A stretch of 53,143 nucleotides of DNA, counting the filler, from Streblomastix strix (Eukaryota), in NCBI GenBank assembly GCA_008636045.1. It is 2 parts of 2 records of this genome, joined end to end, with 100 filler letters (N's around TTAATTAATTAA, not from the genome) between each part and the next. Parts side by side here need not be neighbours in the genome. Positions count along the whole stretch, not along the records: positions 26,661 to 53,143 come from SNRW01000164.1; 1 more part is not named here. The stretch is one strand, 5' to 3'. A program made the position numbers and the translations under genes. Position 1 is the first letter of the stretch. Each line of letters begins with the position of its first letter. The notes under the pieces were generated by a model. It worked only from the letters and a program-made list of their open reading frames with translations. It made no database searches and was not told where the DNA came from. This document shows, in pieces, positions 24,224 through 53,143 of the stretch.

Positions 24224-24365
24224 TGTTTTTGTAAAAATAAGAAATTAATTATTTTTATAAGAAAATAGATATAAAGAAAAATAAATATAAAAATAAGGAA
24301 AATTAATGAAATATTAGAATATTAAATATAATATACGAACATTAATACATATCATCATTATATAA

Positions 24366-26660: not shown

Positions 26661-27570
26661 ATTGAGGATGTGAAAATTGAGTGATGTTAGACAGTACGTG
26701 AGTTTAGGAGTGATGAGTTAAGGTAGTGAGATCTCTTTCAGGAATACCTAGATTTGCAAGTTCTGTTGTTGCTGAGTATCGTATTGATTATGCTGATGCT
26801 CCTACTATCTTCAGTTCTCTTAATAGTTTTGTAAGTTGTAGACTGATATCTTTTGTAGTTGTTGTTTTATTAAATTCTTCATACCCTAATTAAAATTCTG
26901 TACGTTTTGGAAATTGCTTCTTTAGTCTATCAATCGATTCATACATTTCTAGCATCATGCTTAATTTTTCATTGTCAGTTTCATATGTTTCATTTGTTTA
27001 TATTGCGTTTACCTGTTTTGGTGTTAGTCTTAATAATGCTTGATTCTCTGTTTTGTTAACATTTGAGAATTTTAGTCATATTTCTGCTATTTCATTTGGT
27101 CTGAAGAAACATACTGACATTAGTAAACAAGCTATTTTTAATTGAAAGTCATAGTTCTTTAAGTATTAATTTTGTTTTGATTATCTCCAATGGTTAAATA
27201 ATATTTGAAAGTTCCAAATGTTTTAATATCTTCTATGTGGTATAGTTGCATTTGCTAATGTTTTATTAATTTGTTTTGAGGTTGTTGAGGATGCTAAATT
27301 CTCTTTATTTATAAGAGATAACATTGTAGTTAGACAAGCTTTATGTGATTTAGCTGATGCGACTGAGTTATTCTGTCTTGTTTGGAAGGCAAATACTTCT
27401 GTTAATATTATTTTTGCGTCTCTATTCATCATTTCTTCTATTATTATTCTTTCAATAATTATCCAATCCTATAATAATGCTAGGGAGTAAAAATCTCTCT
27501 TGACTGTATTAAATCTTTGTACTTTGAATAGCAAGTTAACTCCATCTTCTGAAAATCTTCTCATTTTCAT
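26661..27570 (-). pseudogene. DIRS tyrosine recombinase (disrupted)
   Basis: KIACLLMSVCFFRPNEIAEI* (catalytic Arg box followed by TGA) and SAQSIRYSATTELANLG..THHS (degenerate HxxR box). Frameshifts near the 3' end. Confidence 0.8.
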
Positions 27571-27589
27571 GCATTTAATTAGTTAGTCT

Positions 27590-29520: not shown

Positions 29521-29549
29521 TTTATATATTAATTCTCCAATCCTTTTCT

Positions 29550-32500
29550 CCATCTCCTGAGGAGCCATCGTCATCAGCGCGCTCCTCTCCTCTATTCCAG
29601 AGGGAGATCTCAACGCTGATCTCCCTTGGTTGGAGTGTCCCTGCCCGATCAGGGGCTATCTTCCTCCTAGCCCTCGTTGTTAGAGTTTTTTGGTTCGGGA
29701 TTAACCTATTCAGATTTTTTCTTGCCTCTATTGGGCGCAGCTTTATGTTTTGGAACTTTGGAAGTTGTTTTTGTTTGAGTTAGGGCATTGCTGCCCTAAC
29801 TTTCCTCGGAGGCATTCAAGCCTTCGGTTTTTGATTTTCTACTTCTTTTTCTTTACTCAGGCTTCTCCTGTACTCCGACTAGAGCAGGGCCTGAAACATC
29901 TTCTTCCATTTAACTCAAGGCATTTAAAATCTGGTTGTCTTATGGCTATGTGCCTAGATTCTCTAAAACTAGGGTCTATGAGATTAAATTAGCTCTATTA
30001 TCTTTAATTTGGTTTAATGGTGCTTCATCTGTTTACTCATCTTCTTCCTCTTCAGCATTATCCTCATTGCTTTCATTTATTTACGGATCTGTACTTTCCC
30101 TATTACTGTCTGATATTAATCCCGCTTCCATTAACCTCGGCCCTGCATTTAAGCCTGGGCTCCAGACACCAGAACTCGGTTACAAACCAGTTAGCTGTCC
30201 AACAGTTCCCTGAATATCAGGTAGGTCAACATTTATATTGTTGAGATCATTATTCTGTTATTATTGAAGTTATTGCTTTAGCAATTATTATTTCAATTTT
30301 CTCTCAGCTTTCTTTAGTCTTTATTTAGCTCCTCTTCTATGAGTTGATTTCTTTGCTGAGGTATAGAGTAGCTATATTTAGCTGTTTAATTTGTCTCTAT
30401 TCATTCCGGTATTAATCATCATTGGTAAAAGTGAAATTATCCATTATTAGGTTTTTGGACCAGTTTCCTACTATTATTATTTAGTTATTTCCCTGAAGAT
30501 TCATTATTAGATCATTTAATGTAATTGTTGTGGGGCTTATTTAGGTGTTAGGTTATTATTATTGTTTATCACTCCAATTTCTTGTTGCCATTCATTCTCT
30601 GAATTCGATATGCTATACTATTCTTTCTCCCTTTATAATGCAGCTAACTTCTCCTTTAGTATTTCTTATTCATCAATGTCATCTTGGCTCGGTGGTTAAT
30701 CTTTTCTCCCTTTCTATTTTGGTGCCTGGGTTAGAATTTGTTACTTTGGTTGTACATGTATTTGTTGTTCTCTTTATATTTAATTGGGTAGGTTGTTTGA
30801 GCTATGATGTTGTTACCTGATGTTAAGGGACCTCATCTTCCGTCCAGGTTGAGTCTCAATCACTATAGTTCTCTAGGTCTTTCTGCATCTGTGTGCGTTT
30901 TGTCCAATCATCATTTGGATTGCCATCCCAGCCTTCTTCTCTATTCCTGTTTTCAAATTAATGTGTTCTGTTCCGGTTTATCGGGTTCTTTGTCTTGTTA
31001 AAGACTTACATGGTACATGGGTCATATTTTTATGCTTCTCTATATCTCTCCTCTTAATTCGATTAGTCTCTATCTTGATAACTCTGTATTCTTCCTTAAT
31101 AACTATATCCTCTTCCTCTATATGATCCTCGGCCTCTACCCCTTGACTCATTTCTTGTTTCAAATCCATTATGATTTCTATCAACATCCATTCTAGTTTC
31201 TCTTGGACTTTAGTAGTCTGTAGACCTTGAATAACTCCTTGATCCTGATCGTTCTCTCGATTCACTTCTTCTGTCGGGAGGGTCATATCTTGATCTCTTG
31301 CTGTGCGGTGATAAGGACCTATTTCTATGTCTTCCAAATCTGGTTTTGAATTCCTGTATTATTGTTTTGGCTGGTTATAATGTTTCTGAGTCATCTTCTG
31401 AATCATATTCTTTCCTCACACATGCTACTCTCAAATCAAAATTAAGTTCTCTACAGAATGATCTAACAGCATCTATAGAAGGTGTCTAACCCTGTTATTT
31501 TGACTATCTCTAATCTGTCGCATGCGGTACATCTGGACCAAATCCCGGCCAACATTATCCTTCATCATCTTTGCCTACTAGTATTAGATCGAATCCTTTT
31601 AACATCCATCTACGCATCTGGTCCTTGATAGTTTCTTTTGTCAATTCGTTTGGAATTCCTGGAATTTCTTGTTCTGCGTTCAAAGCAGGAGGGAAGATTG
31701 TTGACTATGGTATTACTGCATTTCTTTGTGTACATAGTCCATGATCTGGTGGAGACCAGTCTCTAGGTCCTGCGTTTGGTGGTGACATATCGTTTTGTGT
31801 TCTCGCAATCTAAGCTTCTTAGTTCAGTTCGAAGGCTTGGCTCTCGTTTTAATTCAGCACTGGCCTCTTTATTTGATTCCAGATCGCTGATGGTGTTAAT
31901 TAGCGAAATTTCTTAGTTTTGACTCCTTCTTTCGCAGCTATTGAATTCCTAACAACAAATTCGTGATTCCTATCGCATCTTTGTTCGCTGTGTCGCTCCT
32001 TGCAATGACCTGCGCTCCCAGCATGTGCGATCCTGCTTCGCTATTTAAGTGCGAGTTATTTGAATTCGCAGCTAAATTAAAATAGTTTGCGTTGGTTCCG
32101 TTCTCGTTCCGTGCTCTTGCAAAATGCGTTCTCTCGGCTTCTCTTAAATTATGAATCATCTAGCTGAGTATGTTAATTGCAAAATTATCTTCCTGTTGTT
32201 CACACAAGTGTGCCAGCATTCCTTGGCCTATTCTGAAGTTGTATAACTCCAGTGCTTGCTCTCTCTGCAAAATTTTGTCAATCGGACTGCGCTTCGAGTC
32301 TAGTACTTCATCTGATACTGGTACCGATGTAATTGGCAATAGCTAAGGGCATTGTATCTATCTTCTCCGAGCTTCACCATTCTGTTCGTCTAGGATATTC
32401 GTTGCCCAGAAATCAATCTCGCTCGCTTGCACCCCAGTCGTCGCCTCCAAGATCTTTGCCATAAGCGCTTGCGTTCTCTCACTGACCGCCTGCCTCGGAG

Positions 32501-32621
32501 TTAGTTATCGCTCGATGTCTTGCAACGTTGGCTGCAGCTCTGCCTAAAGAAACTTTCCGATCTCGTCTCCCATCTCCGGTTGCTCGACTGCGGTCGCGAC
32601 GGGTGTTTTTGCAGTGAACAT
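29550..32621 (-). pseudogene. DIRS ORF1 (gag-like, low-complexity)
   Basis: One frame joins the 32544-32852 and 31938-32159 ORF pieces with TAR=Gln. It lies upstream of RT. The 3' boundary is approximate. Confidence 0.55.
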
Positions 32622-32840
32622 TGGTGGGTCGAAATTCACAACCAGTCCCAGCTCTGACGGTTCCGGTTTTATTGAATTCTTTGAAATTTTTGAAAAATGG
32701 CCACCCCATAGATCGGATTTCTGTTCACGAACCGACCGTATTGGAGCCACAATGGTATCACAATAAAGAGATGAGATAAGGAGAGAAGATGGTAACCAAT
32801 TATTATCCTTGTCTCCCTTGGAGACAGGATACTCTCTAGG

Positions 32841-32990
32841 TAATGGTGGCAATAGAAGAAAGAAAAATATTTGTGGGAATAAACAGATGAAGGGAAGAAA
32901 TATTTGATGGAGAAAAGAGAAAAAAAGAAAAAGATTTGATTTACTAGTTACTATAGAAAAGTAGAATATACCTTCACAAAAGTAAATTTA
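32841..32990 (+). pseudogene. 3' remnant of a paralog of the 45784+ gene, cut by the DIRS insertion
   Basis: QWWQQKKEKYLWEQTDEGKKYL matches QWQQWMEEKDLWEQTDEGKKYL at about 47277-47345. Confidence 0.7.
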
Positions 32991-33468
32991 TTCTAATTTT
33001 TATACATTTGTACATATTATTAAGTTTTAATTATATTAATTTATGTTAAACATTTCAAATATTAAATATAAAATTGAATAATAAATTTATGACACTAATC
33101 TTCATATTTATTATTTATTTATTAATATTGATAATGATTAATAAATTACTACTGGAAAAGACATTAAGTCAGTTGAATTATTATATATTTGATGTGAAAT
33201 TGAAAATTTTGAAGTTTATCAGAAAATAATAAAATATAAATAGTTAGAGATAGATAAAATAAAAGATAAAATAGAGAAAACGATAAGAACAGAGAAAAAT
33301 AAATAATTTATGGAAAATAAAATAAAAACTGCTAAACAAAATGGATTTGAATTGAATTGAGAGATGAATATTAGAAGGTGAATGAAATGGAATGACAGTA
33401 AAACCTTTTCACTCATAATTTTATAGTCATGTTCCATTTCATTTTTTGATTGATGAAGAAGATTATAT

Positions 33469-36400
33469 TCAATTAGTTAAACGTTAGGCAATTTCTTGAT
33501 ATTCAATAATGTCATCAATTGTGAATCGCTTTTAGACATCCTTTATTATATATATAAAAAGAAATAAATTATAATTATTATTTTATATATTATTTTTACA
33601 AAAAATTATTAATTATATATATTAAATGAAAATAAAATATATTTTAAATAAATATACTTTAATAAGCATTTTCATAATCAGATTCTTTATCCTATCTGAA
33701 TATTGAAATGGAAGTTCTTGTGGATTTGATTCTGTAATAATTTTAATCAAATCATCCAATGTCACATTATCCTTATAAATAAATAAAATAATTTAATATC
33801 AAAAGATAATATTAAATATAAATATATAACGAAAAAATGACTAATTATATACCTTATTATTTACAAAAGGATGTTTCTATGCCAGAATTTCATAACAAAT
33901 TACGCCCATTGCCCAAATATCTGCTGCCTGTGTTTGGATAATTTTACTTATAGAAGAAATATAAGAATTTAGATAAAACAAAATATTAAAGTAAAATATA
34001 TTTTTTAAATATAATATTTTTTACCTTCTTTCTCCTTCATTTGAGCGCTTTAATAGTTCTGGAGATTAATATAATCTAAATTATTTTAAAAAGTGATTAA
34101 TATAAAAATTAATATAATATTAAATAAAAAAATAAACCTTTTATTAATTATGTTTATAAATTTATAAATTACTAATATTTAATATCTAATTAGCAAACAT
34201 TGTGCCAACTTGCATTGTTGTATAATCTTTTCCAAACTATAATTGCCTAGTTAAAGCAAGGTCAGCTGTAATTATAAACAGTAAATATAAATAATTAATT
34301 AGTTAAATACATATATTCAATTATTATTTATACCTAACTTAATTTTCAACTCATTTGTCAAAAGCACATTTTCACATTTAAGATCTCCATGTATTCTCCT
34401 GGTTGAATGAAGTTGATAAACAGCACAAGCTAATTCAGTAATCATTGCCCAAGCATCCTAAATGATAAATAAATAAAAATAAGTAAAAAATTATATTAAT
34501 TTAAATTAATTTAAATTAATTTAAATAAATTGAATTTATAATATAAATTAAATAAATCTTTAAACTTCTTCATTAATCATTTTTCCATCATTTTTCAAAT
34601 TGTTAATAAACTTCCTCAAGTCACCTCTTTCACAATATTCCATAACTATGTAAGATATAATTCCATCATCACTTAAGAAGAATCCCAATGGTTAAACCAT
34701 TCTAATTATTTAATTTGGGAAGTTAAGTTTAATCTCATCATATGTATTTTTTAGATTTTCTCGTTCTTTATTTACAAATAATTTCTCTTCATCAGAATAA
34801 TAACTCATTTATTTCCACGCAACAATATTTCCTGTTTTTATATTAACTGCTTTCCATACTTCACCAAATGCACCTTTACCAAGTCGTTCCATTCGATTGA
34901 CTAATATTTATAAATTAATAAATATGATTAAAAAAAAATAAAATTTGAATTAATAAAATTAAAATAAATATATTATTAATTTTATTTATATGTATAAATT
35001 TAGATAAAAAAATCATTATAAAATAGAAAATTAATAAATTTAAATAATTGTATTAATATTTTTAAATAAATTATTATTTAAATAAGATTGTATACAATCT
35101 GTTTGCTTCCAATTTACAGTATATGTATTATTTGAATTATGATTTTTATTCTGTGAAGATGAAGAAGAATTTTGGTTTATTTCTTACATATTATATTCCA
35201 ATTATTATTATTATTTAATTATTCTCTTTCTTTGTTATTTTACTTAATAATTATTATATCCCCTTGAGCAATTAGATTTACAATTAGAACAACTATCGGA
35301 AAATTTACAACATAAACATATAATGATTATCAATATTAATGCAAGAGAAACAGATACAATTAGGAATATTATCCACTTGGGGAAATTAGATTTTTATGTC
35401 AAATCTTATTCAAAATCATCTTTATCTTAATCCTTTTTACAATCATCTCGTGGATCATTTTCAATGCAAGCACAATCTTATTCAGTCTTTCCTGTTACAT
35501 CTGTGCAGTCAATTGGTACTGTGCAAATATCAATTCTTGGATCATTTTCAATACATTCACATTCTTATTCAGTCTTACCTATTACATCTGTGCAGTCAAT
35601 TGGTACTGTGCAAATATCAATTCTTGGATCATTTTCAATACATTCACATTCTTATTCAGTCTTTCCTGTTACATCTGTGCAGTCAATTGGTACTGTGCAA
35701 ATATCAATTCTTGGATCATTTTCAATACATTCACATTCTTATTTAGTCTTACCTATTACATCTGTGCAGTCAATTGGTGGTGGGCAAATATCAATTCTTG
35801 GATCATCTTCAATGCATTCACATTCTTATTCAGTTTTTCCTGTTAAATCTGTGCAGTCAATTGGAAATGGACAGTTAAATTTATTTTCATCAATATCTTC
35901 ATTCCAAAATTATTCAAGTTATTTTTATTATTATTTAATTTATTCAATAGGTGAAAAATTGAAAGTTGTGAAATTAATTGGAATTCCTTCAAGTTCACAT
36001 AAGTATGATGTAGAATCACTATAATTCCCTTTAACATATTCTCCTTTAATTCCATATTGACACCATTCTTATAATTTAGTCATTACTAAATACAAACTTT
36101 ATCCTCCATTTGATGCTGAATTATTGTATATTTTCAATCCTCTAAAATCTAAATCATTTGAAGATGGATCATAATCTCCTTCTCCAGCAAGAAAGATTCC
36201 ACCGCCAAATCCTGTTGAATAAGATATTGATTAATTTGAAATTGCTTAACACCCCTTGATTAAGATATCATCTATAATAAACTGATTTTGAGTAGTTAAA
36301 TTAGCATTAATATATATTCCACCACCATTTGGAGCTCTGCAATTATTGATTGTTATGCTACTAATTGAAATTGATTAATTATTATTAATATAACAGTATA

Positions 36401-38585
36401 TCCCACCACCACTGTCAGATGCAGAACAATTATTTATGAGAATTTAGTTGGATTAATTTATAATTATACTATTATTATTGTAATTAATATATTATCCAAT
36501 ATATATTCCACCTCCATATGTAGCTTTACATTCTTTGAATATAAGATTGTTTGATGTAATTTCAAGAATGTTATTCTTAAAATAGCAAATATAATATATC
36601 CCACCACCATTATAGGCTGAACAATTAAAGAATGTCGTATTAATAAACTCCAGAGTACTATTATTATTATATTCCAAGTATATTCCTCCACCATAATATG
36701 AAGCACTACAACTGCTGAATGTTAATCCATTAATAACTTATTATGTTGGACTAGACATATCTAGAAAGATCCCACCACCACCATTGCTACTGCTGCAATT
36801 CTCAAATATGACTTTGTTCAATTTAGCAACACCATAATTTTCACAATCAATAAGCATTCCCCCACCAGCAGAATAAGATTGACATCCTTTGAATAAACAA
36901 TCTTCCAATCTGAGTAAACTACTGGAACTGTAAATCCGAGCATAAAGCCCACCACCATTAACAGCATAACAATCTATGAATTAACATTATCCATCAATTG
37001 ATAATTTGGATCCTGAATCTATCTCAGCAAAGATTCCACCACCAATAACTTCAGATTTACATTCTTTAAATGAAGAATTAGAAATAGAACCCTGACTTCC
37101 ATTATATATTCCTAGAAATAAAGCTCCTCCATATGAATTGTATGAACTGTTTGAGTTTATTTCACAATAAATGAAATTGCAGTTACTTATGTATAATCTA
37201 CTAAATGAATTATTCAATGTTATTTCCATAACTCCTCCATATCAATTATTATATGAATAATTATTATATTTTGAAATGTTTTCAAAGTTGCAATCATTTA
37301 TGTTAATAACACTTGTAGAGCTATTAATATAGATTGAACTGGAATTAGATTAAATATCTTTGATATTCAGATTAGAAATTGTAAGATTTCCATTATCTAA
37401 TCTGAGAAGTCTCTTTTGAATTGTTATTCCTGATTAATTCGTTCTCATTTAACAATCGTTCAATTCAATTGAAGTTGATAATCCTTATCCGAAAATAATA
37501 TAATTACCAATTGTACTTCCAGATGATACAATGAAATTGATATTTTCAAATAGAATTGAACCAGAAACATTGAAATATGTGCTTGTTTCATTAATGATTA
37601 AATCACTAAATGAAGAAAGACTTGTTAAATCCTTTGCAAATCTTCTTACTTGAGATGTTTGTGTTATTGTAAGTGTAGATGGAAGGGTTGATTTATCATA
37701 GATATAGACATTGTAATCATTAACTGTATTAATATTATTAACAATTGTATTTGCATTGAGTGTCTTACATGGATTTGATGATGTGCATGTTTGTGTATCA
37801 ATTCCAGATTCTCTCACATAATAATCAAGACAACTGACATCTAAGAAACTAATTGATGATGAAAAGATTAGAAGAATTATGATGATAATTGGAAAGTTCT
37901 TATTCTTATTAAATTTTAGTTTATTATCTATAATTGATTATTCATTATTGTTGAGATATTGAATTACTACTGAGTAAATGAAATGTGTAACAATAGAAAT
38001 TACTGTAATTAATACTATCAACTGAGAAATGTGCTGACAAATGAAGTTTAGAAGATCTTACACATTATTATGATGCTTTACTTCAAATTAGTTAATTTCT
38101 ATTAATAATTAATGATGATTGAGCTAAGAAATTGGTTCAGTATATCTTTATGTGGAAGAAATAGTGTAGTTAGAATAATGGTCATACATCGACAATGAAT
38201 TATCCAATATGTAACAGATATAATTCTCATTATTTATGAAAGCTTAACATCTCATAGGCAAATTGTAAATGAATTAATCAATAGGAAATTTCGAATTTGG
38301 CAATTCAACAGTATTTTAGTTCAATTAAGTTGCAACGATTTACGGATAGTGACACTGACCAAGTTTCTCTGGGTATTATACCAATCCAATAAAAGGATGT
38401 GAAGCGCTGTTCAAAATATAGCAGTTGATTTTGATTGCTGCATTGACGTCTATAGGTAAAATATTTGGCAAGTTCATCATTTTTATTGCCAATAATGTAG
38501 CCTATCCAAGCAACAAAGAACAGATAGCTGCAAATGAAATGCGGTACGTGGAGAATGACGATTGGAACTTCAGCGAGTTTTTCAT
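33469..38585 (-). CDS. receptor-like protein kinase: leader, GG-repeat (Pmp/beta-helix-like) ectodomain, Cys-rich stalk repeats, TM, NEK-like kinase; one in-frame TGA
   Basis: ATG 38585 (MKNSLKFQSS...), repeated FxxCxAxxGGGIY, TM WIIFLIVSVSLALILIIIICLCC, kinase motifs GKGAFG, VAWK, MEYCERGDL, HGDLKCEN, DLA, SPE, DIWAMG split by several GT-AG introns, stop 33471-33469. In-frame TGA at 37244-37242, so it may be a pseudogene. Confidence 0.82.
35450..35875 (-). repeat. ~5 tandem 87-bp repeats encoding CTVPIDCTDVTGKTEQECECIENDPRIDI
   Basis: Near-identical 87-nt units, in frame in the receptor stalk. Confidence 0.9.
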
Positions 38586-39220
38586 GCGTGAATCTATTTG
38601 TATAATAAATAGTTATAGATAAAAATATGCGCTAATTTATTTATTGATCTATTAAAATGCATTTGCAACAAGTTATATAATGGTAGTCGAACAGAAAATG
38701 CTTTTTTATAAAATATTATTCTAAGTTCTTAGATATGCAATATTTTATATTAATATTATTATTAAAATATCTATAATATTGAATTAATTAATAATTCAAT
38801 ACAAATATTCACTAATATTAATTGGTTAAGACGATAAAAAAAACTTTCTTTTGATATGAATATCTTCATAGATAAAATAATATATTTTGATTTGGTTAAA
38901 AAATTATTCAAATATATTCATCTGGATCATCATAAGAACATAATATTTACTAATTTTAACTATATAAAAAAAAATTAATTAAAGTTGAAAATAGTTTGTT
39001 TTTTTTAAAAAAAAAATATTTCAATGTTGTTAATATATAATAATATTGCATATAACAGATTTGTATCAATTATATCAATAACAATAAATAAATATTAAAA
39101 TGAAAAAATAAGAAAATCAAGAAAAAAAGTTTAATTAAAAAAAATCACTAAAAAAATAAAATAAATACTTAAATTTGATCGACAGTAGTAATATTTAATT
39201 TTGATTGATAAAAGCAATAT

Positions 39221-41829
39221 TCAATTTGCATCTTCATCTTAATCATATGGATGATCATTATCTTAATATGAATCAACACTATCCAAATCAAGATTTAATT
39301 CTTCTCTTTCATCTTCATCGGGTTTCAATTTGTCTTATTTCTTCTTTTATTTTTGCTTTTTCTTGTTTTCTTTATCCTGTTGCTTCTTTTTGTCTAATAA
39401 TGCTGGTAAATCAACATCATCTTCTGATGTTGTGTATAAGATACCAAATAAGACATCTCCTAAATGAAGGAATTCATCTGCACCATCTTCTTCAATTTCA
39501 CGCAGTTGTTCTTCTGGGTTTTCTAAGTTTGACAAAAACTATAAATGTGTAATATAGTAATAATAAATAAAAATTAATATATTAATATATTAAAATATTA
39601 ATAAAATTAATATAATTCATATTTAAATAAATTTAAAATAATCTGTTTCATATTTTACTAAATAAATTGCAATAATTGATGTTATTATTATTTATTTCAC
39701 ATACTGGAACAAACATTTCTCCAATAGGTTCATCCCAAAGAATTTTGTCCTAATCCCAGACTTCAAACTTAACTTCTCGATCTTTAGTTTTCTTAGGATC
39801 AAAATCAAACTTATATTATCTGTTATAAACTGGATGCAAAGTCTTATGTGCAACTTCAGTTCTAAATTCTTATCCTCCTAAATTAAGCACAACATATGGA
39901 TCAGATTTACCACCAACATCAAATGGGATTAGATCACTCAATTCCTCTAAATATATATAAACATATCCAGGTACAAAATAAGTTTCATTCATTTTTATGT
40001 CTTCTGTCAGTTTCTTATTCTCTTCTCTCACGTTCTTTGACATGTGCAGCGATGGCTTCAGGAGATGGAATCTTTAATCTCGCAGCTTCACGGAGTGCTT
40101 TGATGGTTCTCTGACCTTGTGGAGGTTATGGTGGTTTGTTTTTTAGTTTATTTTCAAAATCTTTTTTGGCTTTTTCTTTTTCTTAATCTGGTTTGTTTTT
40201 ATCAGGAATTTAATTCTTTTTTCTTTCTTTTTCTTTTTGTTTATCTTTTGGATCTTTGCATTCATCATCTTCCTCATCTGATGGATAATCTTTTTATTTT
40301 GGCTTTCTTTATTTTTTATTTGGATCTTAATATTAATCATCTTCATCTTCATCTGGTGAATATCTTCCTTTTGAGGGTCTTATGCTTTTTGATTTTTTAA
40401 TTGGATCTTAATATTAATCATCTTAATCTTCATCGGGTTTCAATTTGTCTTATTTCTTCTTTTATTTCTATTTTTTCTTGTTTTCTTTCTCTTGTTGCTT
40501 CTTTTTGTCTAATAATGCTGGTAAATCAACATCATCTTCTGATGTTGTGTATAAGATTCCAAATAAGACATCTCCTAAATGAAGGAATTCATCTGCACCA
40601 TCTTCTTCAATTTCACGAAGTTGTTCTTCTGGCTTTTCTAAGTTTGATTAAAACTATAAATGCGTAATATAATTATAATAATAATAACAATTAAAAATTA
40701 ATAAAATAATTTATATCATATTTAGTTAAATTAATTATAATAATTAATATTAAAATATTTCACATATTGGAATAAACACCTCTTTTACAGGTTCATCCCA
40801 AAGAATTCTGTCTTAATCCCAGACTTCAAACTTAACTTCTCGATCTTTAGTTTTCTTAGGATCAAAATCGAACTTATATTATCTGTTATAAACTGGATGC
40901 AAAGTTTTATTTGCAACTTCAGTTCTAAATTCTTATCCACCTAAATTAAGCACAACATATGCATCAGATTTACCACCAACATCAAATGGGATTAGATCAC
41001 TCAATTCCTCCAAATATATATAAACATATCCAGGTACAAAATAAGTTTCATTCATTTTTATGTCTTCTGTCAGTTTCTTATTCTCTTCTCTCACGTTCTT
41101 TGACATGTGCAGCGATGGCTTCAGGAGATGGAATCTTTAATCTCGCAGCTTCACGGAGTGCTTTGATGGTTCTCTGACCTTGTGGAGGTTATGGTGGTTT
41201 GTTTTTTAGTTTATTTTCAAAATCTTTTTTGGCTTTTTCTTTATCTTTATCTGGTTTGTTTTAATCTGGTTTGTTTTAATCTGGAATTTAATTCTTTTTT
41301 CTTTCTTTTTCTTTTTGTTTATCTTTTGGATCTTTGTATTCATCATCTTCCTCATCTGAAGGATAATCTTTTTATTTTGGTTTTGATCTTCTTTATTTTT
41401 AATTTGGATCTTAATATTCATCATCTTCATCTTCATCTGGTGAATATCTTCCTTTTGGAGGTCTTAAGCTTTTTGATTTTTTATTTGGGTCTTAATATTC
41501 ATCATCTTCATCTTAATTTTCATCTTAATCTGGACTTTTTACACTTTAATTTGGATTTCTTGATTTCGGTTTTTCTTTCTCTTATTCCAATTATTTCTAT
41601 TTTTCCTTATCAATCATCTTATTATAATCTTATTGTGGTAGATATACTATTTCTATATACATATCTCCTGCTGCTTCATTCTGACCTTCATCTTGATCAC
41701 CAATTAGATTAAGATGAAGTTTTTATGGGTTGAGGAAGTAACGACCAAACTATGAATGGAAATAAATATATAAGAAAGTAAATTGTAAAATTACATATAA
41801 AAGTAAATAATTATATTTTAATCATTCAA

Positions 41830-41861
<32 letters not shown>

Positions 41862-44800
41862 GATATAGATATATAAATACATACAAATATAAAAAAATAA
41901 AAAATAATATGCAAACCGGAATTGCAACTCATCCAACAAAAACTTCATCTTCATAATCATAATCATCTTCATCACTTTCATATTCTTCATATTCTTCCTT
42001 ATCATATTTCTTCTTCTTTCTATCCAAGACTTCAATAAACAATTCTCTTTCATTTGTCTTCTCGGGATCAAAGTCAATATCAAACAGTTCATCAAAATCA
42101 ACATCAATTGCTTTGTTGTATGTTTTGGTTTCTTTCTCTTCTGCGCCAATAATTAATCTCGTAAATGGATTGGGTTTCCGTTTTGGTTCGTTTTGTGCTA
42201 AATTGTTCAAATCGAGAACTTTAACTCTGACAACTCCAATCACATATTCAGATTCATCAAGTTCTCTTCCTTAAACTTTCAATGGATCAAAATAATCAAA
42301 GTCTTTTTATTTATCATCTTTTTTCTTTCTTTTCATATCTTTCTTCTTCTTTTCATCGTCATCTTTCGGATTCTAATACAATTCTCTCAAATTTTATTCT
42401 TATTCTTTCTGCTTCTTTTTGTTCTCTTCATCAATCTTATCCTGGATATATTTCTCTTCTGATATGTACATAAGAGAAAAACAAACTTTCCCGCAATTCT
42501 TCTCTTATTCTTATCTTTACTTCAGAGATAACTTAGATTGTGAATGATTGTATCCTTCAGTATCTTTCTTCTTGTATATGAAGACTTCATTGTAGATCTC
42601 ATGTTCAAATATTGGGAGGATCTAATAATAATAAAATATAAATAATAATTATCAATTTAAATAAATTTATTAAATATTTCAAATAAACTTAAATAATCAA
42701 TAATAAAAATAAATATATTTCATTTATATATTTTCAATTACATATAAATTCAATCTATACAAATAAAAACCTCCACAATTCCAGCTCCAATCAGATCATT
42801 GCTTCCAATTCTATCATAATCCCAAACTTCAATATCGATTTCTTTCCTTTCCTTCATCTTATTAGGAATATATAATAGCTCAAATTATTCACCAATATAA
42901 TCATAGTTTTATGTGTTATGAGCAACTGATGTTTATTTTGATTCATCAGCACCAAGTTTGAATACAACATATGGATCGAATTTGTCCATGAAATCCATTT
43001 CAGGTAAATCTCGAACTTTGACATTTCGGATCTTAACTACTCCTTTGATGTATTTGGAATCATTTTCATCATATTTCATTTTTTTGGGATCTTTTTTGGA
43101 TTTATTTTTTGAATCTGGATCTGATTCATCACTTGATTCATTATCTCCACTTTTATCTTCTGAATTTGAGTCTGAATCATAATCTTTTTATTTGGGTTTC
43201 TTTCTTTATTTTAATTAATTATCTTTATCTTTATCTTTATCTTTTGGTTTATTATATTAATCTTCATCTTCATCAGATTAATCCTTTTATTATTGTGGCT
43301 ATCTTTTTCTCACTTTTTCTTTTTCTTTATCTTATTATTTAGGTTTATTATCTTCATCTTCTGAGTTTGAGTCTGATTCATAATCTTTTTATTTTGGTTT
43401 CTATCTTCTTTTCAATTCATTTTCATTTTCTTTATCTTTTTCTTATTATTTCTCTTCAGGTAAATAAATCATAGTAAATTTGATTATTCCATTGTTTTTA
43501 TCTGGTTTATATTATGCGAGATTTGATTTCAGTTTTGATTGATCCTTCTTCTTATCAGGTTTTGGTTGTAAATACAATTCAAAATCTATTTCATGTTATA
43601 GAGCTGGAAGTATCTGTTGTAGGATAAGTAAATAGAAATGAATATGAATTAATATGAATAAATTAAATATAATAAAATAAATAATATGTGCTTTATATAG
43701 AAATAAAACAAATTATTAATATAATTTATTTATAAATATACAATAATATATAATAAACAAAATATAATAATATATACCTCCACATTCACAGATCCAATCA
43801 AATCATCCAAACCAACTTTATCATAATCCCAAACTTCAAGAGTAACATTTCCATCTCCTTTCATTATACTTGGATCATAAATCATCTCATATTCTTCACC
43901 TTCATACAAATGATTCAAAGTATTCTTAGCTACTGAAGTCTGCTTCTCATCATTTCATAATCGTAATAAAACATATGGATCATATTTTCCAATTAAATCC
44001 ATCTTAGGAAGATCTTCAACTGATATGTTACTCAATATAACTTTGCCTTTCACATATTTCAGACTTTTCGCTTCTTTCATTTTCTTGTCTTTTGCATCTT
44101 CCAGTTTATTGATCCTATCCTGCATCTATTAAACTGCTTCATCTTCTTTTTTATGTTCTTCATCTTCTTTTTTTTTTATTATTCTGCAATTATGGGATAA
44201 ATTCAATTGTTAAATACGCAATTCCTGTTGGTTCATCATATTCATCTTGAATTTTGACTTCTTTGTCTTGTTTGTTGTTCAGGAAGGGAAGGATCTATGA
44301 TTCAAAGGATATATACAATATATGAATAAATATATACAAATAACAATAATTTAATTTAACATAAAACAATTTCAGTATTTAATAATATAATCACACATTA
44401 ACATTCGCTCCGCCGATCTTATCATCAGAAGCATAGTCATCCTTATCCCAGACTTCAATCTTCATTGAATCTGATTAATTTGGATCAAATTGATACTCAA
44501 ACTCAAATTATTCATTGAATTCTGCATCAGTTGCTCCTTTTTTAGGTTTAGTTTTCTCTATTTAATTCAGAACCAACAAAGTAACATAAGGTCTTTTTTC
44601 AGCTTCGGGATCATATGTTACTAAATCACGCACACTATGCACAGTTATTTTCAATATTCCTTTCTTGTTCTCATTTTCGGATTATTTCGCTTTTTGTGCT
44701 TATTTCTGTCTTTTAGCTTTCAGTTTCGAAAGAAGATCTGCTATAGCTCTTTTAAGCTCATCTATTTCACGCTGAAGGTATTCCAACATTTTGTCTTCTA

Positions 44801-45054
44801 AGGCAACTTGTTTCAGATGTTGTGTTTTAGAAAGATCTACTTCGTTGTATTATTGTTCTTTTTAATCAATCGCGATTTTCATTTCTTCAATAAGTTTATT
44901 GACATCTACGGTATTTAAAGTCTAACCATCTTTTATATTTGGGGTATTTTTTTCGTTACCTCTCAATGCTAGAAGGAGAAATGGCAGTGACTTCTGGCGA
45001 ACTCGTAGAATCGAATTTTACTCGTTTTGCGCCTGAATCGCCGCTTCTGCTCAT
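39221..45054 (-). CDS. multi-C2-domain protein (about six C2 domains, charged linkers, several introns)
   Basis: C2 motifs such as DLPKMDLIGKYDPYV...EVWDYDKVGLDDLIG, DLPEMDFMDKFDPYV...EVWDYDRIGSNDLIG and EVWDQDKILWDEP. TGA at 39223-39221. The 5' end needs a one-base shift at an A-run near 44950. Confidence 0.78.
39311..41520. repeat. intragenic tandem duplication (~1.1 kb) of a C2 module
   Basis: 39311-40425 matches 40426-41520 with near-identical exons (for example ORFs 39896 and 40959) and diverged introns. Confidence 0.88.
41836..41872. repeat. (TA)n microsatellite in an intron
   Basis: Directly visible. Confidence 0.9.
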
Positions 45055-45783
45055 TATTCATAATTCTGTATATTATTTTGATAAGATAAAATCAAATATT
45101 AAATAATTATATTTCAATATTAAAATAATGCAAAAGATTTAACAAGTAAAATATAGTTAATTGCAGAAAAATTTCCTTTTTGTATTTCGACTCAATTATA
45201 TAGAAAAAATCATGTCTATTTAATAAAAAGGATAACATGATATATAATAGTTCGATAACAATATTTTATAATTGAATAAAATTGGAGAAGCGACTACACA
45301 CAAACAAACAGCCTGAAATTTTGTAGAATTTGCTTAAGTTCGCAGATGATATTTTGTGAGTGTATCAAATAGAATATTTGATTGTAGAATTAATAAATTA
45401 CTTTTAAATATGGTATAGTATGTATTAGAAATGTTTGTCAAGCTCAGAACAGTCACAATTTTGGTTCTATGCTCGATACACCATTGAAACTTTCGTATAA
45501 CTATTAGTTTTATCATAAATGTATTCGTTCTAACTAAATTAATTGTTTTAAAATCAAACACCTCCTATTTAAACTGCCTAACTTGAATTGATAATCTGAA
45601 TTTTATTTTTCGTTTTTCTGCACGCATTAAAACAATTAATTAAAATAATTGTATTTATCGTGCCAATATTCTGAATATATTTAATAAAATATCTTTATTT
45701 CTTAATTTTGTTAGTAGACTAATATTTAAAATAAATATTAATTTTTCATTTTTCTATGCCATTAAGATAAACTTACTGTTAGA

Positions 45784-47400
45784 ATGAGTAGAAACCTCTT
45801 AAGTTTGCTTCGTAATCAGTCAGAATAAAAGTTAGATAGTTAACATCCACCGATCCCTGTAGACCCGAACGCATTCTAACACCAAACAATTATTACAGAT
45901 TTTCATAAACAAACTTCAACTCCAAATTATGCATCATTTTCATCCAACCACAGAAATTATAACAATTAGCATTAATATAATTCTAATTTTACTCCCCAAT
46001 AAAACTAATTTGGGCAATTCAATCAATAGAATTCTGGATAGTCTGAAAGAATTGTTAGAAAACCACTCACTTCACTTTTGTCCTCAGCAAAAACAGAATC
46101 ATTCAATAATCAGAATTCATTATAATAGTAATATTAACCCAATTAATCTTCTTATTACAGGCTAGATACAAAACCTCCATAAAACTAATAATAATCAAAT
46201 AATTTACAATAATTCAATCAAAATCCAGAATTGAATCGATCATTTTCAGATACGTTCACAAATCATACACTTCAAATTAGCAATATTCCTTCAAATTAAA
46301 TATTTCACCGAACTTCGCTCCTTTCAAAACTCCAATAAAATCATTTAACAGAATAAATATCTAAATTTAACTCCATTGATTAAAATAATAATTAAAATAA
46401 TAATATTATAAAATAAAATAAAGAACCCGAAAAGAATAACATTATTAAATTTGAAAACAATAATTTTATTAAATTTAATAACAATAATGATATTGAAAAT
46501 ATTGATCCTTCAAATCCAATTTAATAATCTATTAAACAAGAATAAATTGGATTTTCAGAGAATGAATCAGAATAAAACGAAATGAATGATTAAATTCAAA
46601 TCAAATAAACAACAAAAGTTAGAAAGAAAAAGAAGAAACTCACTTCAGAAGAAAAAAATTAACAAAAAATAGAAAAGAAACAAAAAGAAGGAAAAAAACA
46701 ATTAAAAGAAAAAGAAAAATAATAAAATAAATCATCAAGATCAAAAAGTAATACAAAATAAAGTAATTCAAAATAAAAAGATAATAATTAGAAAACTTCC
46801 AGGAAAAGAAGAATAATTAAAATTAAAGAATAAAAACATCTCTAAAATAATTTCATATTATTCATGATAATGACGATGAGGATGATGAAGAATAATTTAA
46901 TTAAAATTATAATATAAGTATTCCAATGGGAAATTAATATTAATAAACAAACGATATAGTAAATAGAAAAGTGAAAAGAAAAAGAGAAATTGAAGAAGAA
47001 GAAGAAGAAGAAAATATCGCCGATGGTATTAATAACTAGAACTAACAATCAAATAAATATAGTAAATTTGATAATTATCTTAAAGATGATGATGAATAAT
47101 AATATTCTGCATCATCTTCATCATCAGAATCAAGCAGTTCCAATTCAAAAAACAAATCCAATACCAAACAAAGAGGATCTTTCAGAGGAATATACTTTGG
47201 AAATTGCATTTGAGGAAGAGGAAGAGGAAGAACAAATAGAAATTAAAAGATCAGAATTCCAAAAAGATTCTCATAATAATGGTAGCAATGGATGGAAGAA
47301 AAAGATTTATGGGAATAAACAGATGAAGGGAAGAAATATTTGAAAGAGAAAGCATAAATGAAAAAGAAGAACAAATTTACTTGCTACAACAGAAATATAT
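45784..47400 (+). pseudogene. low-complexity N/Q/K-rich hypothetical gene with RG-rich C-terminal part; frameshift and TGA
   Basis: ATG 45784 (MSRNLLSLLRNQ...). Apparent frameshift near 46810 and TGA in GNCI*GRGRGR at about 47211. The C-terminal motif is conserved with the 32841 remnant. The lesions could be assembly errors. Confidence 0.55.
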
Positions 47401-48309
47401 AATATAATATCATAAAAGTTAATTTATTCTTATTTTAATTCATTTGTACATTTAATTAAGATTTAATTATATTAATTTATGTTAAACATTTCAAATATTA
47501 AATATAAAATTGAATATTAAATTCATGGAATTTATTTATCTTAAAAGTTTCTTATTTTTTATTTCCTATTATTGATAATGATTACTAAACTACCACTGGT
47601 AAAGACGTTTAAGTCAATTGAATTATTATATATTTGATGTGGAATTGAAAATTTTGAAGTTTATCAGAAAATAATATATAAATATAAATATAAATAGACA
47701 GAGAGAGAAAAAATAAAAAATAAAAAAGAGAAAATGAAAAGAATGGAGAAAAATAAACAATTTGTGCAAAATAAAATAAAAATGTCCATCAAAATGGATT
47801 TGAATTGAATTGAGAGAAGAATATTAGAAGGTGAATGAAATGGAATGACAGTAAAACCTTTTCACTCATAATTTTGCTGTCATATTCCAATTCATTTTTT
47901 GATTGAGGAAGATGATTGTATTTTGTGTTTCAATTATATATGTTGATGATTATTGAAAAATTCATGAAGAAGAGAATGAATTTGTTTAATTGGAGATATA
48001 AGATAAAGGTGTATGAAATAATAACAAATGATTTACAAGACGAATTTCACTAACTTTGAGCCTACATCATAAAATAATAAGAACTCATTGTGAAATAAAT
48101 TAATTACTTAATTATTTATTATTTAAAATATTAAATTAATAATTTCAAACCTTATTTGAATTAGAATTGAGCCCTCCTCTTGCTAGAAGATAACTTAATT
48201 CATTTACATAATGATTACGGAAGAAGGGGTAAATGATGAGATGATATATAAATAAAACAGTGAAATTTATTCAAAATCTTTAAGTTATATTCATTTATCA
48301 ACTTAATTC

Positions 48310-51300
48310 TCAAGCATATTCAATTTTCTTCACACGATTCGAATCATAGATCACATATTCTGGCAAATTGAGGTTGGTATTCATATAGTTTGCAGGAAAA
48401 TAAACACTATCATATCCTTATTTCTTGAGCTATTCTCCAGTTAACTATGGTTCCATCTACTTCATGATCTTAGTTCTTCCAATATCAACTTAGCATTTAA
48501 GAATGACTCCCTTTTGATGTGCTTTTCGATTTGTATCTTCAACATTGAGAGCGAAATATATACCACCTCCTGCAATTCCACCTGTTCCAGGTCTAAATCC
48601 AGTTTGTATGATCTATCTTGCTGCTTCGCGAGATGTTTAATGATATCCATCAACGATATTAATAGCTTTTACTGATTATGGTGGTGGATAATTTTATTTA
48701 TTAATATATGAAGATGGTCGATAAATTTTCTTATCAGAGCATAATCTTGCGCAATTTATACAACAATTTGAACATCCTTCAGTACAACTTGAACAACAAT
48801 CAGAACATCCATCAGTGCAACTTGAACAGCAATCAGAACATCCTTTAGCACAACTTGAACAACATCCACAGCAGCATAAGATTATTGCTACCAAAGCAAG
48901 AGAAACAAATACTATTAGAAATATTGCCCACCAAGGTAAATTAGATTTATTCCAATATCTCTCTAAATATTATTATTGATGCATAATTTTATCAATTGAT
49001 AATGAATAGAAAGTGTTGAAACTTAATTAAATTCCTTAAAGTTCATTTTCATTTGATGTAGAATCACTATAATTCCCTTTAACATATTCTCCTTTATATC
49101 CATATTAACACCATTCTTATAATTTAGTCATTACAATATACAAACTCTATCCTCCATTAGTTGCTGAATTATTGTATATTTTCATTCCTCTAAAATCTAA
49201 CCCAATAGAATTGAAATCATAATCTCCATTTCCAGCAAGAAATATTCCACCTCCAAATCCAAAATGTGATTTATTTGAAAATGCTTGACATCCTTTAATT
49301 AAGATATCTTCAATAATAAACTGAATTTGAATAGAAAAATTAGTATTAACACATATTCCTCCACCATTTGGAGCTCTACAATTATTAAGCGTCATGTTAC
49401 TAATTGAAATTGAACTATTGTTATATTAAATATCACAGAATATTCCACCACCATATACATCTGCAGAACAATTGTCTATAAGAATCTAATTTGATGAAAT
49501 AAAAGATATGCGATAATTATAAATGTAATCATAATAATCTAAATCAGTATATATTCCTCCACCATATGAAGCTGAACATTCTTTGATTATAAGATTGTAT
49601 GATGTAATTGTTAGGGTATTATTATTAAAATGGCAATAAATGTATATTCCCCCACCAAAATATTAGGCTGTACAATTAAAGATAGTAGTATTAATAAACT
49701 CCAGAGAATTATTATTTCAAAAAGAAATGCATATTCCTCCACCACGATTAGCACTACAACTGGTGAATGCTGATCCATTAATAACTTAATGTGTTGAATA
49801 ATACATATCCAGATAGATTCCGTTACCATAAGAACTACTGGAATTCTCAAATATGACTTTGTTCACTTAAACAACACCTTAGTCATATAAATATAAGTAT
49901 GCTCCTCCACCAGAATAAGCTTGACATCCTCTAAATAGACAATCTTCCAAGCTGGGTTAACTACTGGAATCATAAATAGCATAAATTCCACCACCATCTC
50001 AATGAGCTTTACAACCTATGAATTAACATTATCCAGTGATTAATAATATTGATCCATTAGCTATATTTACATAGATACCACCACCATTATCAGCATAACA
50101 ATCTATGAACTAACATTAACCATCGATTGTTAACTTGGCCCCATTATATATAAATGCATAGATTCCACCACCAATATCACCAGCTTAACATTCTTTAAAT
50201 GTTGAATTAGAAATAGAACTTTGACTTCCATTTGATAATCTAAGATATAAAGCTCCTCCATATGAATAGAGTGATGATGATGATATTTCACATTTAATTA
50301 AATTGCAATTTCTTATATTTAGAATGTTATATGAATTGTTCAATCTTATTTCCATTACTCCACCTTCATGATAACTATTATTATATTTTGAAATGTTCTC
50401 AAAGATGCAATCAATTATGTTAATAGCACTTGAAGAACTATTTATATAGATTGAGTTGGAATTAGATTAAATATCTTTTATATTTAGATTTGATAATGTT
50501 AGATTGCCATTATTTAATTAAATAAGTATCTTTTGAATTGTTATTCCTGATTAATTCATTCTCATCTAACAATCATTTAATTCAATTGAAGTTGATGATC
50601 CTGATCCCAAAATAATATAATTACCAACTGTTCCTCCAGATGAAATAATGAAATTGATCTTTTCAAATAGAATTGATCCAGAAACATTGAAATATGTGTT
50701 TGTTTCATTAATGATTAAATCACTAAATGAAGAAAGACTTGTTGAATTCTTTGCAAATCTTCTTACTGGAGATGTTTATGTTATTGAAAGTGTAGATGGA
50801 AGAGTTATTTTATCAATGATATAGACATTGTAAGCACTTGCTGTATTAAGATTATTCTTTATTGTACTTGCATTGAGTGTTTTACATGGACTTGATGATG
50901 AGCATGTTTGTGTATCATTTCCAGATTCTCTCACATAATAATCAAGACAACTGACATCTAAGAAACCAATTGAAGAAATGAAGATTAGAAGCATTATGAT
51001 GATAATTGGAAAGTTCTTATGATTATTATATTTTAATTTATTATCAATAATTGATTATTCATTATAGTTGAGATATTGAATGAGTAAAGAGTGAATGAAA
51101 TTAGAAACAATAGAGATAACTGTAATTAATCCAATCAACTGATAAATGTGCTGACAAATAAAGTTAAGAAGATCTTATACATTATATTGATGTTTTTATT
51201 CTAATTGGTTATTTGCTAATAATAATGAATGATGATTGAGTTAAGAAATTGGTTCAGTATATCTTTATGTGGAAGAAATAGTGTAGTTAGAAAGATGGCC

Positions 51301-51702
51301 ATGCATTTACAATGAATTATCCTACTTGTAACAGATATAATTCTCATTAATGATGAAAGCTTAACAGTTTATAGGCATATAGTTAGTGAATAGTTCGAAA
51401 GAAAGTTTTAAGCTCGTCAATTCAACAGTATAAAAGTCTGAATAAGTAATAAGGACTTGCAAATCATGGAATTGATCATGATTTTATGGTTATTATACCA
51501 ATCCAATTAAAGGATGTGAAGCGTCGTTCAAAATATAGCAGTTGATTTTGATTGTCGCATTGACGTCAATAGGTAAAATGTTTTGCATGTTCGTCACTTT
51601 GATTACGCTTAAAGTAGCCGCGTCAAGCAATAGAGAACATATAACAGCAAATAAAATGCGGCACGTGGAGAATGATGATTGAAACTTCGGCGAGTTTTTC
51701 AT
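48310..51702 (-). CDS. receptor-like ADP-ribosyltransferase: leader, GG-repeat ectodomain, TM, Cys-rich juxtamembrane repeats, PARP/Gig2-like ART domain; two in-frame TGA
   Basis: A single intronless frame of 1131 codons runs from ATG 51702 to TGA 48312-48310. TM LPWWAIFLIVFVSLALVAIILCCC. C-terminus GYHQTSREAARQIIQTGFRPGTGGIAGGGIYFA...ILKCQVDIG...GYDSV...PEYVIYDSNRVK. TGAs at 50001-49999 and 49719-49717. Confidence 0.8.
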
Positions 51703-52335
51703 GTGTGAGTCTAATGTTATAATATAATAATAAAGATAAAATTATGCGCAAAATAATTATATGATTAATCGGAATGTATTTGCAACAAGTTATATAATTG
51801 TAATCGAACAGAAAATGTTTTTTTCTAAAATATTATTCTAAGTTCTTAGTTTAGTAATATTTTAAATTATCATTATATTGAAAATATATGTAATATTGAA
51901 TTAATTAATATTTCAATACAAATATTCACAAATATTAATTGGTTAAGATGATAATAAAAACTATCTTTAGATATGAATATCTTCATAGATAATAAAAGAA
52001 ATTTTGATTTGATTAAAAAATTATTCAAATATATTCATCTGGATTATCATAAGAACATAATATTTACTAATTTTAACTACCTAAAAATATTTAATTAAAG
52101 TTGAAAATAGTTTGTTTTTTTTTTAAAAAAATATATCAAAGTTATTAAAATATAATAATATTACATATAACAGATTTGTATCAATTATATCAATAAAAAT
52201 AAATAAATATTAAAATGAAAAAATAATAAAATCAAGAAAAAAAGTTTAATTAAAAAAAAATCACTAAAAAATAAAATAAATTCTTAAATTTAATTGACTG
52301 TTGTAATATTTAATTTTGAATGATAAATGTAATAT

Positions 52336-53143
52336 TCAATTTTCATCTTCATCTTAATCATATGGATGATCTTTATCTTAATATGAATAAACACTATCCA
52401 AATCAAGATTTAATTCTTCTCCTTCATCTTCATCGGGTTTCAATTTGTCTTATTTCTTCTTTTATTTCTGCTTTTTCTTGTTTTCTTTCTCCTGTTGCTT
52501 CTTTTTGTCTAATAAAGTAGGTAAATCAACATCATCTTCTGATGTTGTGTATAAGATACCAAATAAGACATCTCCTAAATGAAGGAATTCATCTGCACCA
52601 TCTTCTTCAATTTCACGCAGTTGTTCTTCTGGCTTTTCTAAGTTTGACAAAAACTGCAATGTGTAATATAATAATAATTAAAAATTTGATATAAAATGAA
52701 TATAAAAAATATTAATTGTTCCATATTTAAATATATTAATTTTAATAATTAATATTAATATATTTCACTTACTGGTACAAGCAACTCTCCAACAGGTTCA
52801 TCCCAAAGAATTCTGTCTTAATCCCAGACTTCAAATTTAACTTCTCGATCTTTAGTTTTCTTAGGATCAAAATCAAACTTATATTATCTGTTATAAACTG
52901 GATCCAAAGTCTTATGTGCAACTTCAGTTCTAAATTCTTATCCTCACAAATTAAGCACAACATATGGATCAGATTTACGACCAACATCAAATGGGATTAG
53001 ATTACTCAATTCTTCTAAATATATATAAACATATCCAGGTACAAAATAAGTTTCATTCATTTTTATGTCTTCTGTCAGTTTCTTATTCTCTTCTCTCACG
53101 TTCTTTGACATGTGCAGCGATGGCTTCAGGAGATGGAATCTTT
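52336..53143 (-). CDS. 3' end of a second copy of the multi-C2 gene (partial)
   Basis: Near-identical to 39221-40075, with TGA at 52338-52336. Confidence 0.85.

Follow-up and report, generated by a model that had tools for sequence, protein, structure and literature searches.

How do two neighboring copies of a gene for a membrane protein come to carry different enzymes on the cytoplasmic side? The question is raised by a 53,143-nucleotide (nt) stretch of the genome of Streblomastix strix, an oxymonad protist of the termite gut (assembly GCA_008636045.1), hereafter the window, which joins two parts end to end with 100 filler letters between them and whose positions 26,661 to 53,143 come from SNRW01000164.1. 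Two paralogs on the minus strand, gene A (38585-33469) and gene B (51702-48310), encode a related ectodomain and transmembrane (TM) helix, followed in A by a protein kinase and in B by a predicted ADP-ribosyltransferase (ART). On balance we favor the view that B is a duplicate of a β-helix surface-protein gene in which ordinary recombination probably replaced the kinase with a PARP-like ART, and that both copies, interrupted in frame by TGA, are likely damaged alleles. Long frames occur in the window only under genetic code 6 (TAA/TAG = Gln), and the published S. strix assembly is described as a fragmentary single-cell one with an N50 of 5.18 kb (PMC10703272).

The duplicated locus and its two tails

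Self-BLAST uncovers a tandem duplication, at an offset of 13-14.4 kb, that takes in the receptor gene, its downstream flank and the upstream C2-domain gene. The pairs comprise the downstream flanks (32841-33469 versus 47277-47922, 84%), the TM stretch (35320-35393 versus 48876-48948, 78%) and two longer blocks (35898-37047 versus 48946-50089, 77%; 36941-40075 versus 50070-53143, 86%), and 39978-40075 recurs with 100% identity in the final 98 bases of the contig. On its left the duplicated block is cut off at 32840 by the edge of a retroelement, so its true end on that side is lost. Genes A and B are gap-free over their first 440 codons and collinear up to the TM helix, with the same residue in 629 of the 884 codons aligned up to the end of the ectodomain. 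Self-BLAST and code 6 translations, with both TM stretches present, thereby uphold the collinearity from the start codon through ectodomain and TM that an initial annotation of this DNA had reported; its description of the two as the same ectodomain stands for collinearity and fails for identity, as the stalk repeat of A is missing in B, B has one extra rung and the rungs are 75-82% identical at the DNA level.

Past the TM helix, gene A continues through a short Cys patch and a linker into the kinase; it has eight exons and seven GT-AG introns (68-195 nt, 88-96% AT), every one of them after the long first exon, and its stop lies at 33469-33471. This layout is backed by the closest paralog, P0015 from another contig, which shares the exon junctions and has 241 of 281 kinase residues identical. 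The kinase, putatively NEK-like in the initial annotation, is assigned to Pkinase and nothing narrower in Pfam, contains GKGAFG, VAWK and HGDLKCEN motifs, with DLA where DFG is expected, and retains the catalytic Lys, Asp and Asn. In gene B, the juxtamembrane Cys repeat leads through a short linker into an intronless domain of 118 residues. Exon structure and the PARP fold (below) thus agree with the divergence into an intron-rich kinase or an intronless ART that had been noted before, and so does the return of homology in the downstream flank, which restarts directly after the stop of A but ~390 bases after that of B; the additional bases likely arrived together with the ART. Between the replaced intervals (A ~33470-35290, B ~47925-48850) no similarity above shuffled controls was recognized, the best local score being 50 and the shuffle maximum 46 (30 shuffles), and a search of the interval in B for a kinase remnant likewise gave nothing above shuffles. 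Self-comparison places one breakpoint zone in the juxtamembrane Cys repeat and the other just beyond the stop of the kinase of A, and the homology that flanks the swapped interval on either side supports an exchange of the cytoplasmic enzyme inside the duplicated locus.

We propose that the duplication came first and was followed by recombination at these two breakpoints, whereby the ART with its downstream sequence would have replaced the kinase, either inserted here or copied from another ART-tailed paralog. The β-helix would lie outside the cell and, on the face with the fastest-changing outward residues, bind a ligand that varies and is probably a glycan; ligand binding may cluster the protein, and the tail would then phosphorylate cytoplasmic targets (A) or mono-ADP-ribosylate them with NAD+ (B). 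Purifying selection would have acted over most of the divergence, with the stops arising late, as in birth-and-death gene families.

The ectodomain, the ART domain and their families

The modeled ectodomain of gene A (residues 449-895) is a right-handed parallel β-helix, with a predicted local distance difference test score (pLDDT) of 86. It superposes on the A-module of AlgE4 with a VIA Z of 26.8 (root-mean-square deviation [rmsd] 3.4, 321 aligned) and on 50 β-helix proteins, among them polysaccharide lyases, epimerases, adhesins and phage tailspikes, with VIA Z values of 20-27; such likeness of fold alone says nothing of function. Foldseek returned no match at E ≤ 0.001, only weak rows. PF02415 matches neither A nor B and just one of 35 further family models (P0042), and the bacterial matches of the ectodomain carry PF02415 and PF13229. 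Each protein has four hydrophobic segments, and this hydropathy profile fits a topology of signal peptide, small outer domain, helical hairpin, external β-helix and internal enzyme. The N-terminal 232 residues have no match in Pfam or among the fetched proteins; a non-coding leader is ruled out here, as the 232 codons have no indel between A and B and their proportion of nonsynonymous differences (pN, 0.148) is below that of synonymous ones (pS, 0.28; 1/2000 bootstraps).

Over 884 codons, pN is 0.161 and pS 0.271 (reversed in 0/2000 bootstraps) and all 11 gaps of the coding alignment keep the frame, whereas the flanks have 20 indels per 129 mismatches and 16 of these 20 are not multiples of 3; the low pN and the frame-keeping gaps point to purifying selection on A and B. 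The rung glycines are nearly fixed (32/33). At alternate positions following them, which presumably face outward, only 8 of 30 residues are identical and pN reaches 0.43, a value as high being found in 1/5000 random sets of helix codons, so that change in the ectodomain is indeed concentrated on one face. With pN/pS at ~1.35 on just 14 synonymous sites, positive selection at these positions is suggested and not more. The coding pS (0.27) also exceeds the divergence of the flanks (0.10-0.12), and therefore hints at an exchange of coding blocks among paralogs.

By its modeled structure, the tail of gene B is a PARP-fold ART of the H-Y-E superfamily and a predicted enzyme. The AlphaFold2 (AF2) model (pLDDT 83) aligns with tankyrase-2 at Z 11.0 (rmsd 2.5, 113 aligned); PARP3 matches at E 4e-08, and there are 280 matches in PDB at E ≤ 0.001. 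The H-Y-E triad is intact (residues in Table 1) and lines up with the motifs of PARP3 and PARP4; the catalytic Glu is invariant in 28/28 aligned rows of the ART family, and PF00644 matches 21 of 28 members at E ≤ 0.05. Searches with lengths of 222-620 left out yielded ten other S. strix relatives with 65-78% identity (3/5 matches in one search, 7/31 in another). The 11 S. strix ARTs including that of B form one species-specific group with support of 98/96 in a 34-row tree (3 short matches left out), B branching first among them at 80/31, which is unsupported, and two S. strix copies are fused behind cytoplasmic kinases.

A profile search extended the family to 537 clusters at E ≤ 1e-30. Of 151 proteins inspected, P0007 plus the best 150, 125 retain all three motifs and eight have an internal hydrophobic segment ahead of the ART. 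Three of these, P0007, P0146 and P0190, unrelated sequences of eukaryote type, combine a signal peptide, Cys-rich ectodomain, TM helix and ART, and since they come from other sources the receptor-ART layout probably arose more than once; four others join a kinase. The β-helix is absent from all of those outside Streblomastix. P0146 has a Cys-rich juxtamembrane stretch like that of gene B. Fusions of kinase and ART, in S. strix and other sequences, include P0003, P0005 (with additional ubiquitin-binding zinc fingers), P0196, P0216, P0235 and P0254, and the 800-residue P0006 holds this ART between two repeats that have no Pfam match and that we take, by their motif, to resemble R-S-E class ART domains. 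Pattern scans, which are insensitive, gave 90 metagenome stretches and one large viral contig, the assembly of S. strix itself not being among the 80 metagenome loci. By the same insensitive scans, a prokaryotic source found no confirmation in any of 56 matches in prokaryote genomes, and one of six viral-contig matches was confirmed, on a 624-kb contig where it is a small stand-alone frame (L001 6001-6324 and L081 3001-3324). ARTs have been reported from large DNA viruses (PMC9503650). Microbial eukaryotes and large viruses carry the ART as a mobile module, so that a donor is at hand within the S. strix genome, where the family is also expanded.

The ectodomain search recovered 80 proteins, 36 of them from S. 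strix, one being gene A. In a Pfam scan, the 35 other S. strix models showed a kinase in two (P0015, P0036), a RhoGEF-PH pair in one (P0039) and an ART in none; as the search covered lengths of 640-2037 and many models are partial or mis-spliced, these counts are lower bounds. About 10 of the models reach a TM helix, mostly with short tails, and P0039 runs from a β-helix through a TM helix to its cytoplasmic RhoGEF-PH pair. The family thus has the alternative C-termini (kinase, RhoGEF-PH, ART and short tails) that the initial annotation had looked for. A, B, P0015 and P0012 form one subfamily in the ectodomain tree (98/98); the kinase of P0036, from a distant subfamily, is related to that of A (47/124 identical), and its model ends near the same exon boundary. 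Since P0015 and P0036 both carry related kinases, the kinase is likely the ancestral tail, and the ART may well be a later arrival, as had been supposed, although the absence of introns, offered earlier as a sign of this, proves nothing alone. This order is put no higher than likely because the ectodomain trees (33 and 19 rows, with others dropped for coverage < 70%) leave the order of events unfixed.

In-frame stops and alternative histories

Ectodomain, TM helix and enzyme share one frame in each gene, but TGA interrupts it at codon 448 of A and codons 568 and 662 of B, which the initial annotation had overlooked. Removal by introns was considered and rejected: no candidate is possible at codon 448 of A, and the 12 candidates at codon 568 and 3 at codon 662 of B are 61-71% AT, versus 88-96% in true introns, and would take out β-helix rungs. 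A general reassignment of TGA to Trp was likewise discarded, as three other long frames with a third-position GC content (GC3) near 0.2 have 34 TGG among their 5727 codons; TGG also stands at all 12 ordinary Trp sites of A and B, and TGA terminates both genes. Synonymous change around the TGA sites is not raised (pS 0.32 and 0.18 versus 0.36). With these premature stops A and B may have lost their function, and the sequenced copies are likely damaged (nonsense) alleles in a birth-and-death family.

Several observations weigh against the history that we favor. The stops of B, two-thirds of the total, fall in codons of the variable class (84/1130, 7%), that is, at fast-changing surface sites; the stop of A lies two codons ahead of the first rung, itself atypical; and three stops with zero frameshifts fit plain decay poorly. 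Among the contig pieces listed for the three sequencing runs compared (X1, X2 and X3), no single one spans TM to ART. There is no second ART-tailed receptor among the 35 other family models, many of them partial. Different ectodomain blocks join B to P0015 (93/85) or set it outside A and P0015 (91/90), neither grouping being starred. Finally, the PF00644 score of the ART, 25.2 bits (E 1.3e-05), is below the Pfam curated cut-off of 26.7.

The placement of the stops and the intact frames could mean instead that readthrough inserts a residue at internal UGA codons, tolerated at unconstrained surface sites only, and that A and B are active full-length receptors. The low pN relative to pS on either side of the stops and the unraised pS at them are consistent with this, as are a fourth in-frame TGA (18627-18629) that splits a long Tmc-like frame in a linker and the reassignment of UAA and UAG to glutamine already present in S. 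strix. However, the consistent use of TGG for Trp and of TGA as terminator in A and B stands against it, the Tmc-like TGA could sit in a 54-nt GT-AG intron (65% AT), and no UGA readthrough in S. strix was found in the literature searched (most subscription journals outside the search). As the site classes were drawn once the stops were known and n=3, we hold readthrough to be rather unlikely, a minority rival. A more sweeping version, in which microbial eukaryotes repeatedly built receptor ARTs as a hitherto undescribed counterpart of receptor kinases, and the diversifying S. strix β-helix receptors switch outputs (kinase, RhoGEF or ART) at a Cys-rich juxtamembrane hinge while being kept functional by UGA readthrough, so that UAA, UAG and UGA would all be sense codons, appears unlikely. 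The history we favor, replacement of a kinase followed by decay, also has to be set against a chimeric origin of the TM-ART join, by assembly or amplification, in the Cys-rich repeat. Contigs of three runs were compared over 48160-50300, X2 being from the same sample as X1 and X3 from another. The listed X1 pieces (48160-48513, 48490-48859, 48830-48951, 48949-49060 and 49171-50300, each with 0 other letters) include a TM piece and a Cys-ART piece that meet in an overlap of just 30 bases inside a repeat common to the paralogs, and the assembly itself may derive from X1, all of which would suit a chimera. Yet the Cys repeat is bridged to the ART with 0 other letters in X1 (record 2, 48490-48859) and X2 (record 8, 48581-48851), and in X3 one contig (record 13) joins the TM helix to the end of the Cys repeat while in another (record 12, window 48279-48567) N-terminal ectodomain sequence runs in frame into the latter half of a 97%-identical ART; this last contig may represent an allele with a deletion, a splice or a chimera from amplification. 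A chimeric TM-ART join would, moreover, have to return to the homologous flank by another false junction and to keep the frame; the contig tiling and the homology returning on the far side of the ART leave it only a slender chance.

Granting the join, the direction of the swap might be the reverse, with the ART ancestral at the locus and the kinase a later entrant into copy A. The first, unsupported branching of the ART of B and the ectodomain block that sets B outside A and P0015 would accord with this, but related kinases occur on a distant subfamily, and in A the shared flank follows the kinase stop at once, while in B 390 foreign bases come between the ART stop and the flank; we judge the reverse order very unlikely. 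The initial annotation went further and likened the locus to polymorphic toxins or variable immune receptors. A dedicated cassette system, like that of polymorphic toxins or variable lymphocyte receptors (VLRs), would swap receptor tails repeatedly. The family does have at least four tail types, B-type Cys repeats recur at the end of P0028 from another subfamily (out of frame) and before yet another tail in X3, and the excess of coding pS over flank divergence would fit mosaic exchange. However, no immunity genes, orphan tails or recurring recombination signals occur in the window, the ART-tailed case is the only one, and proteins other than receptors also carry the ART, as expected of a domain that is mobile in general. 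A programmed system is therefore unsupported, and repeated cassette exchange is quite improbable; ordinary recombination after duplication is the reading we retain.

Genomic context, known systems and significance

The neighbors of A and B in the window are C2-domain genes, a low-complexity gene and a retroelement, with no immunity gene and no orphan toxin cassette (Table 1). The C2-domain gene or genes have internal duplications (39308-40433 versus 40423-41517, 88%), and one frame of the retroelement resembles a tyrosine recombinase, as in DIRS-like elements. Elsewhere, a gene at 3-6212 (+) with a TPR_TmcB match is related to the TmcB-like one, and the cluster at 23530-26560 suggests an integrated DNA virus or Polinton-like element.

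Table 1. Features of the duplicated locus and of the remainder of the window.
Feature	Coordinates	Strand	Remarks
Gene A exon 1	35096..38585	-	N-terminal domain, β-helix, Cys-rich stalk repeats, TM, linker
Gene A N-terminal 232-aa region	37890..38585	-	two hydrophobic segments, then a third; no Pfam match
Gene A right-handed parallel β-helix ectodomain	35901..37830	-	GG[AG][ILV][YF] rungs
Gene A in-frame TGA, codon 448	37242..37244	-	no in-frame GT-AG intron candidate
Gene A stalk	35442..35864	-	~five 87-bp (29-aa) Cys-rich repeats; none in B
Gene A last TM helix, residues 1072-1090	35316..35372	-	hydropathy
Gene A protein kinase, 7 exons	33469..34900	-	34566-34900, 34334-34457, 34199-34265, 34025-34075, 33853-33946, 33658-33771, 33469-33540
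Downstream flank of A	32841..33468	.	homologous to 47277-47922; starts directly after A stop codon
Gene B	48310..51702	-	single intronless frame, 1130 codons, two internal TGA
Gene B N-terminal 232-aa region	51007..51702	-	alternative Met at codon 237, within next hydrophobic segment
Gene B β-helix ectodomain	48950..50950	-	one rung longer than A
Gene B in-frame TGA, codon 568	49999..50001	-	within X1 contig record 7, 0 other letters
Gene B in-frame TGA, codon 662	49717..49719	-	within X1 contig record 7, 0 other letters
Gene B last TM helix, residues 927-945	48868..48924	-	hydropathy
Gene B juxtamembrane Cys-rich repeat	48739..48876	-	19 Cys/46 residues, 11-residue unit; upstream breakpoint zone
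Gene B PARP-fold ART domain (predicted enzyme)	48313..48666	-	H1021, Y1049, E1115
Segment 3' of ART stop	47923..48309	-	~390 nt, no counterpart in copy A
Downstream flank of B	47277..47922	.	homologous to flank of A
Multi-C2-domain gene(s)	39200-45050 and 52320-53143	-	part of duplicated unit; Lys/Asp-rich linkers
Retroelement, degraded	26661-32840	-	RVT_1 match 28860-29261
Sirtuin, intron-containing	8033-10328	+	SIR2 match; NAD+-consuming enzyme, first contig
Multi-TM TmcB-like gene	10887-21866	-	two in-frame long frames (1079, 2579 codons) split by TGA 18627-18629
Two tandem HNH_3 endonuclease genes (75% identical) and DUF5906/VapE-like helicase frame	23530-26560		

The H-Y-E triad has been defined, and TM-bearing PARPs noted (PARP16, a sponge protein and Rhizaria proteins), in previous work (PMC4245714). 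The ART of B resembles PARP/ARTD domains (PF00644) in fold and triad positions but differs in its length of ~118 residues, in having YHQT for HG[ST], in its score below the Pfam cut-off, in lacking PARP regulatory, WGR and ankyrin domains, and in its position behind a large ectodomain and TM helix; PARP16, in contrast, has a C-terminal anchor and lacks an ectodomain. Gig2 of fish and amphibians consists of small PARP-like units with lineage-specific expansion and domain duplication (PMC3617106; see also bioRxiv 10.1101/693333), and is described in these accounts without the ectodomain or TM helix of B. Compared by description, the S. strix ART family shares with it the small PARP-like units and the expansion. 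A likeness in sequence between the two is presumably also present. Trichomonad Pmp-like proteins are described as an expanded family of varied architecture with repeated GG-hydrophobic motifs and a TM helix near the C-terminus (PMC6701047). A and B share these repeats, the position of the TM helix and the expansion, but mostly have GGG[IL] + FxxC where the Pmp motif is GGA[ILV] + FxxN, do not match PF02415, and bear enzymes where the trichomonad tails are short with endocytic motifs.

Receptor enzymes are classically receptor kinases, phosphatases and cyclases. Plant receptor-like kinases, Toll-like receptors and Entamoeba transmembrane kinases join a solenoid or Cys-rich ectodomain through a TM helix to a cytoplasmic signaling domain, and these families evolve by birth-and-death with many pseudogenes. 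An intact product of gene B would act in the manner of receptor kinases and Toll-like receptors, with a PARP-like output; it differs from them in its β-helix, its probable extra N-terminal membrane domain and its predicted covalent ADP-ribose output where they have a kinase or TIR. Bacterial polymorphic toxins, like A and B, pair a constant N-terminal part with a variable C-terminal enzyme, ART among the variants, but the enzymes of A and B are predicted to face their own cytoplasm, and the window has no immunity gene, orphan cassettes or delivery domain. Within the oxymonads, a kinase expansion has been described in another species (PMC6759080). In the literature searched, no description was found of this receptor family, of ectodomain-TM-ART receptors or of the ~120-residue ART family.

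The stops weaken the claim for these two particular alleles, and the idea that the receptor family senses bacteria is itself unsupported. S. strix carries bacterial ectosymbionts, and bacterial ligands are for this reason plausible. The locus displays the birth of a receptor-ART beside its kinase sibling with both breakpoints still readable, and the family to which the two belong is a candidate for surface recognition by a bacteria-coated protist.

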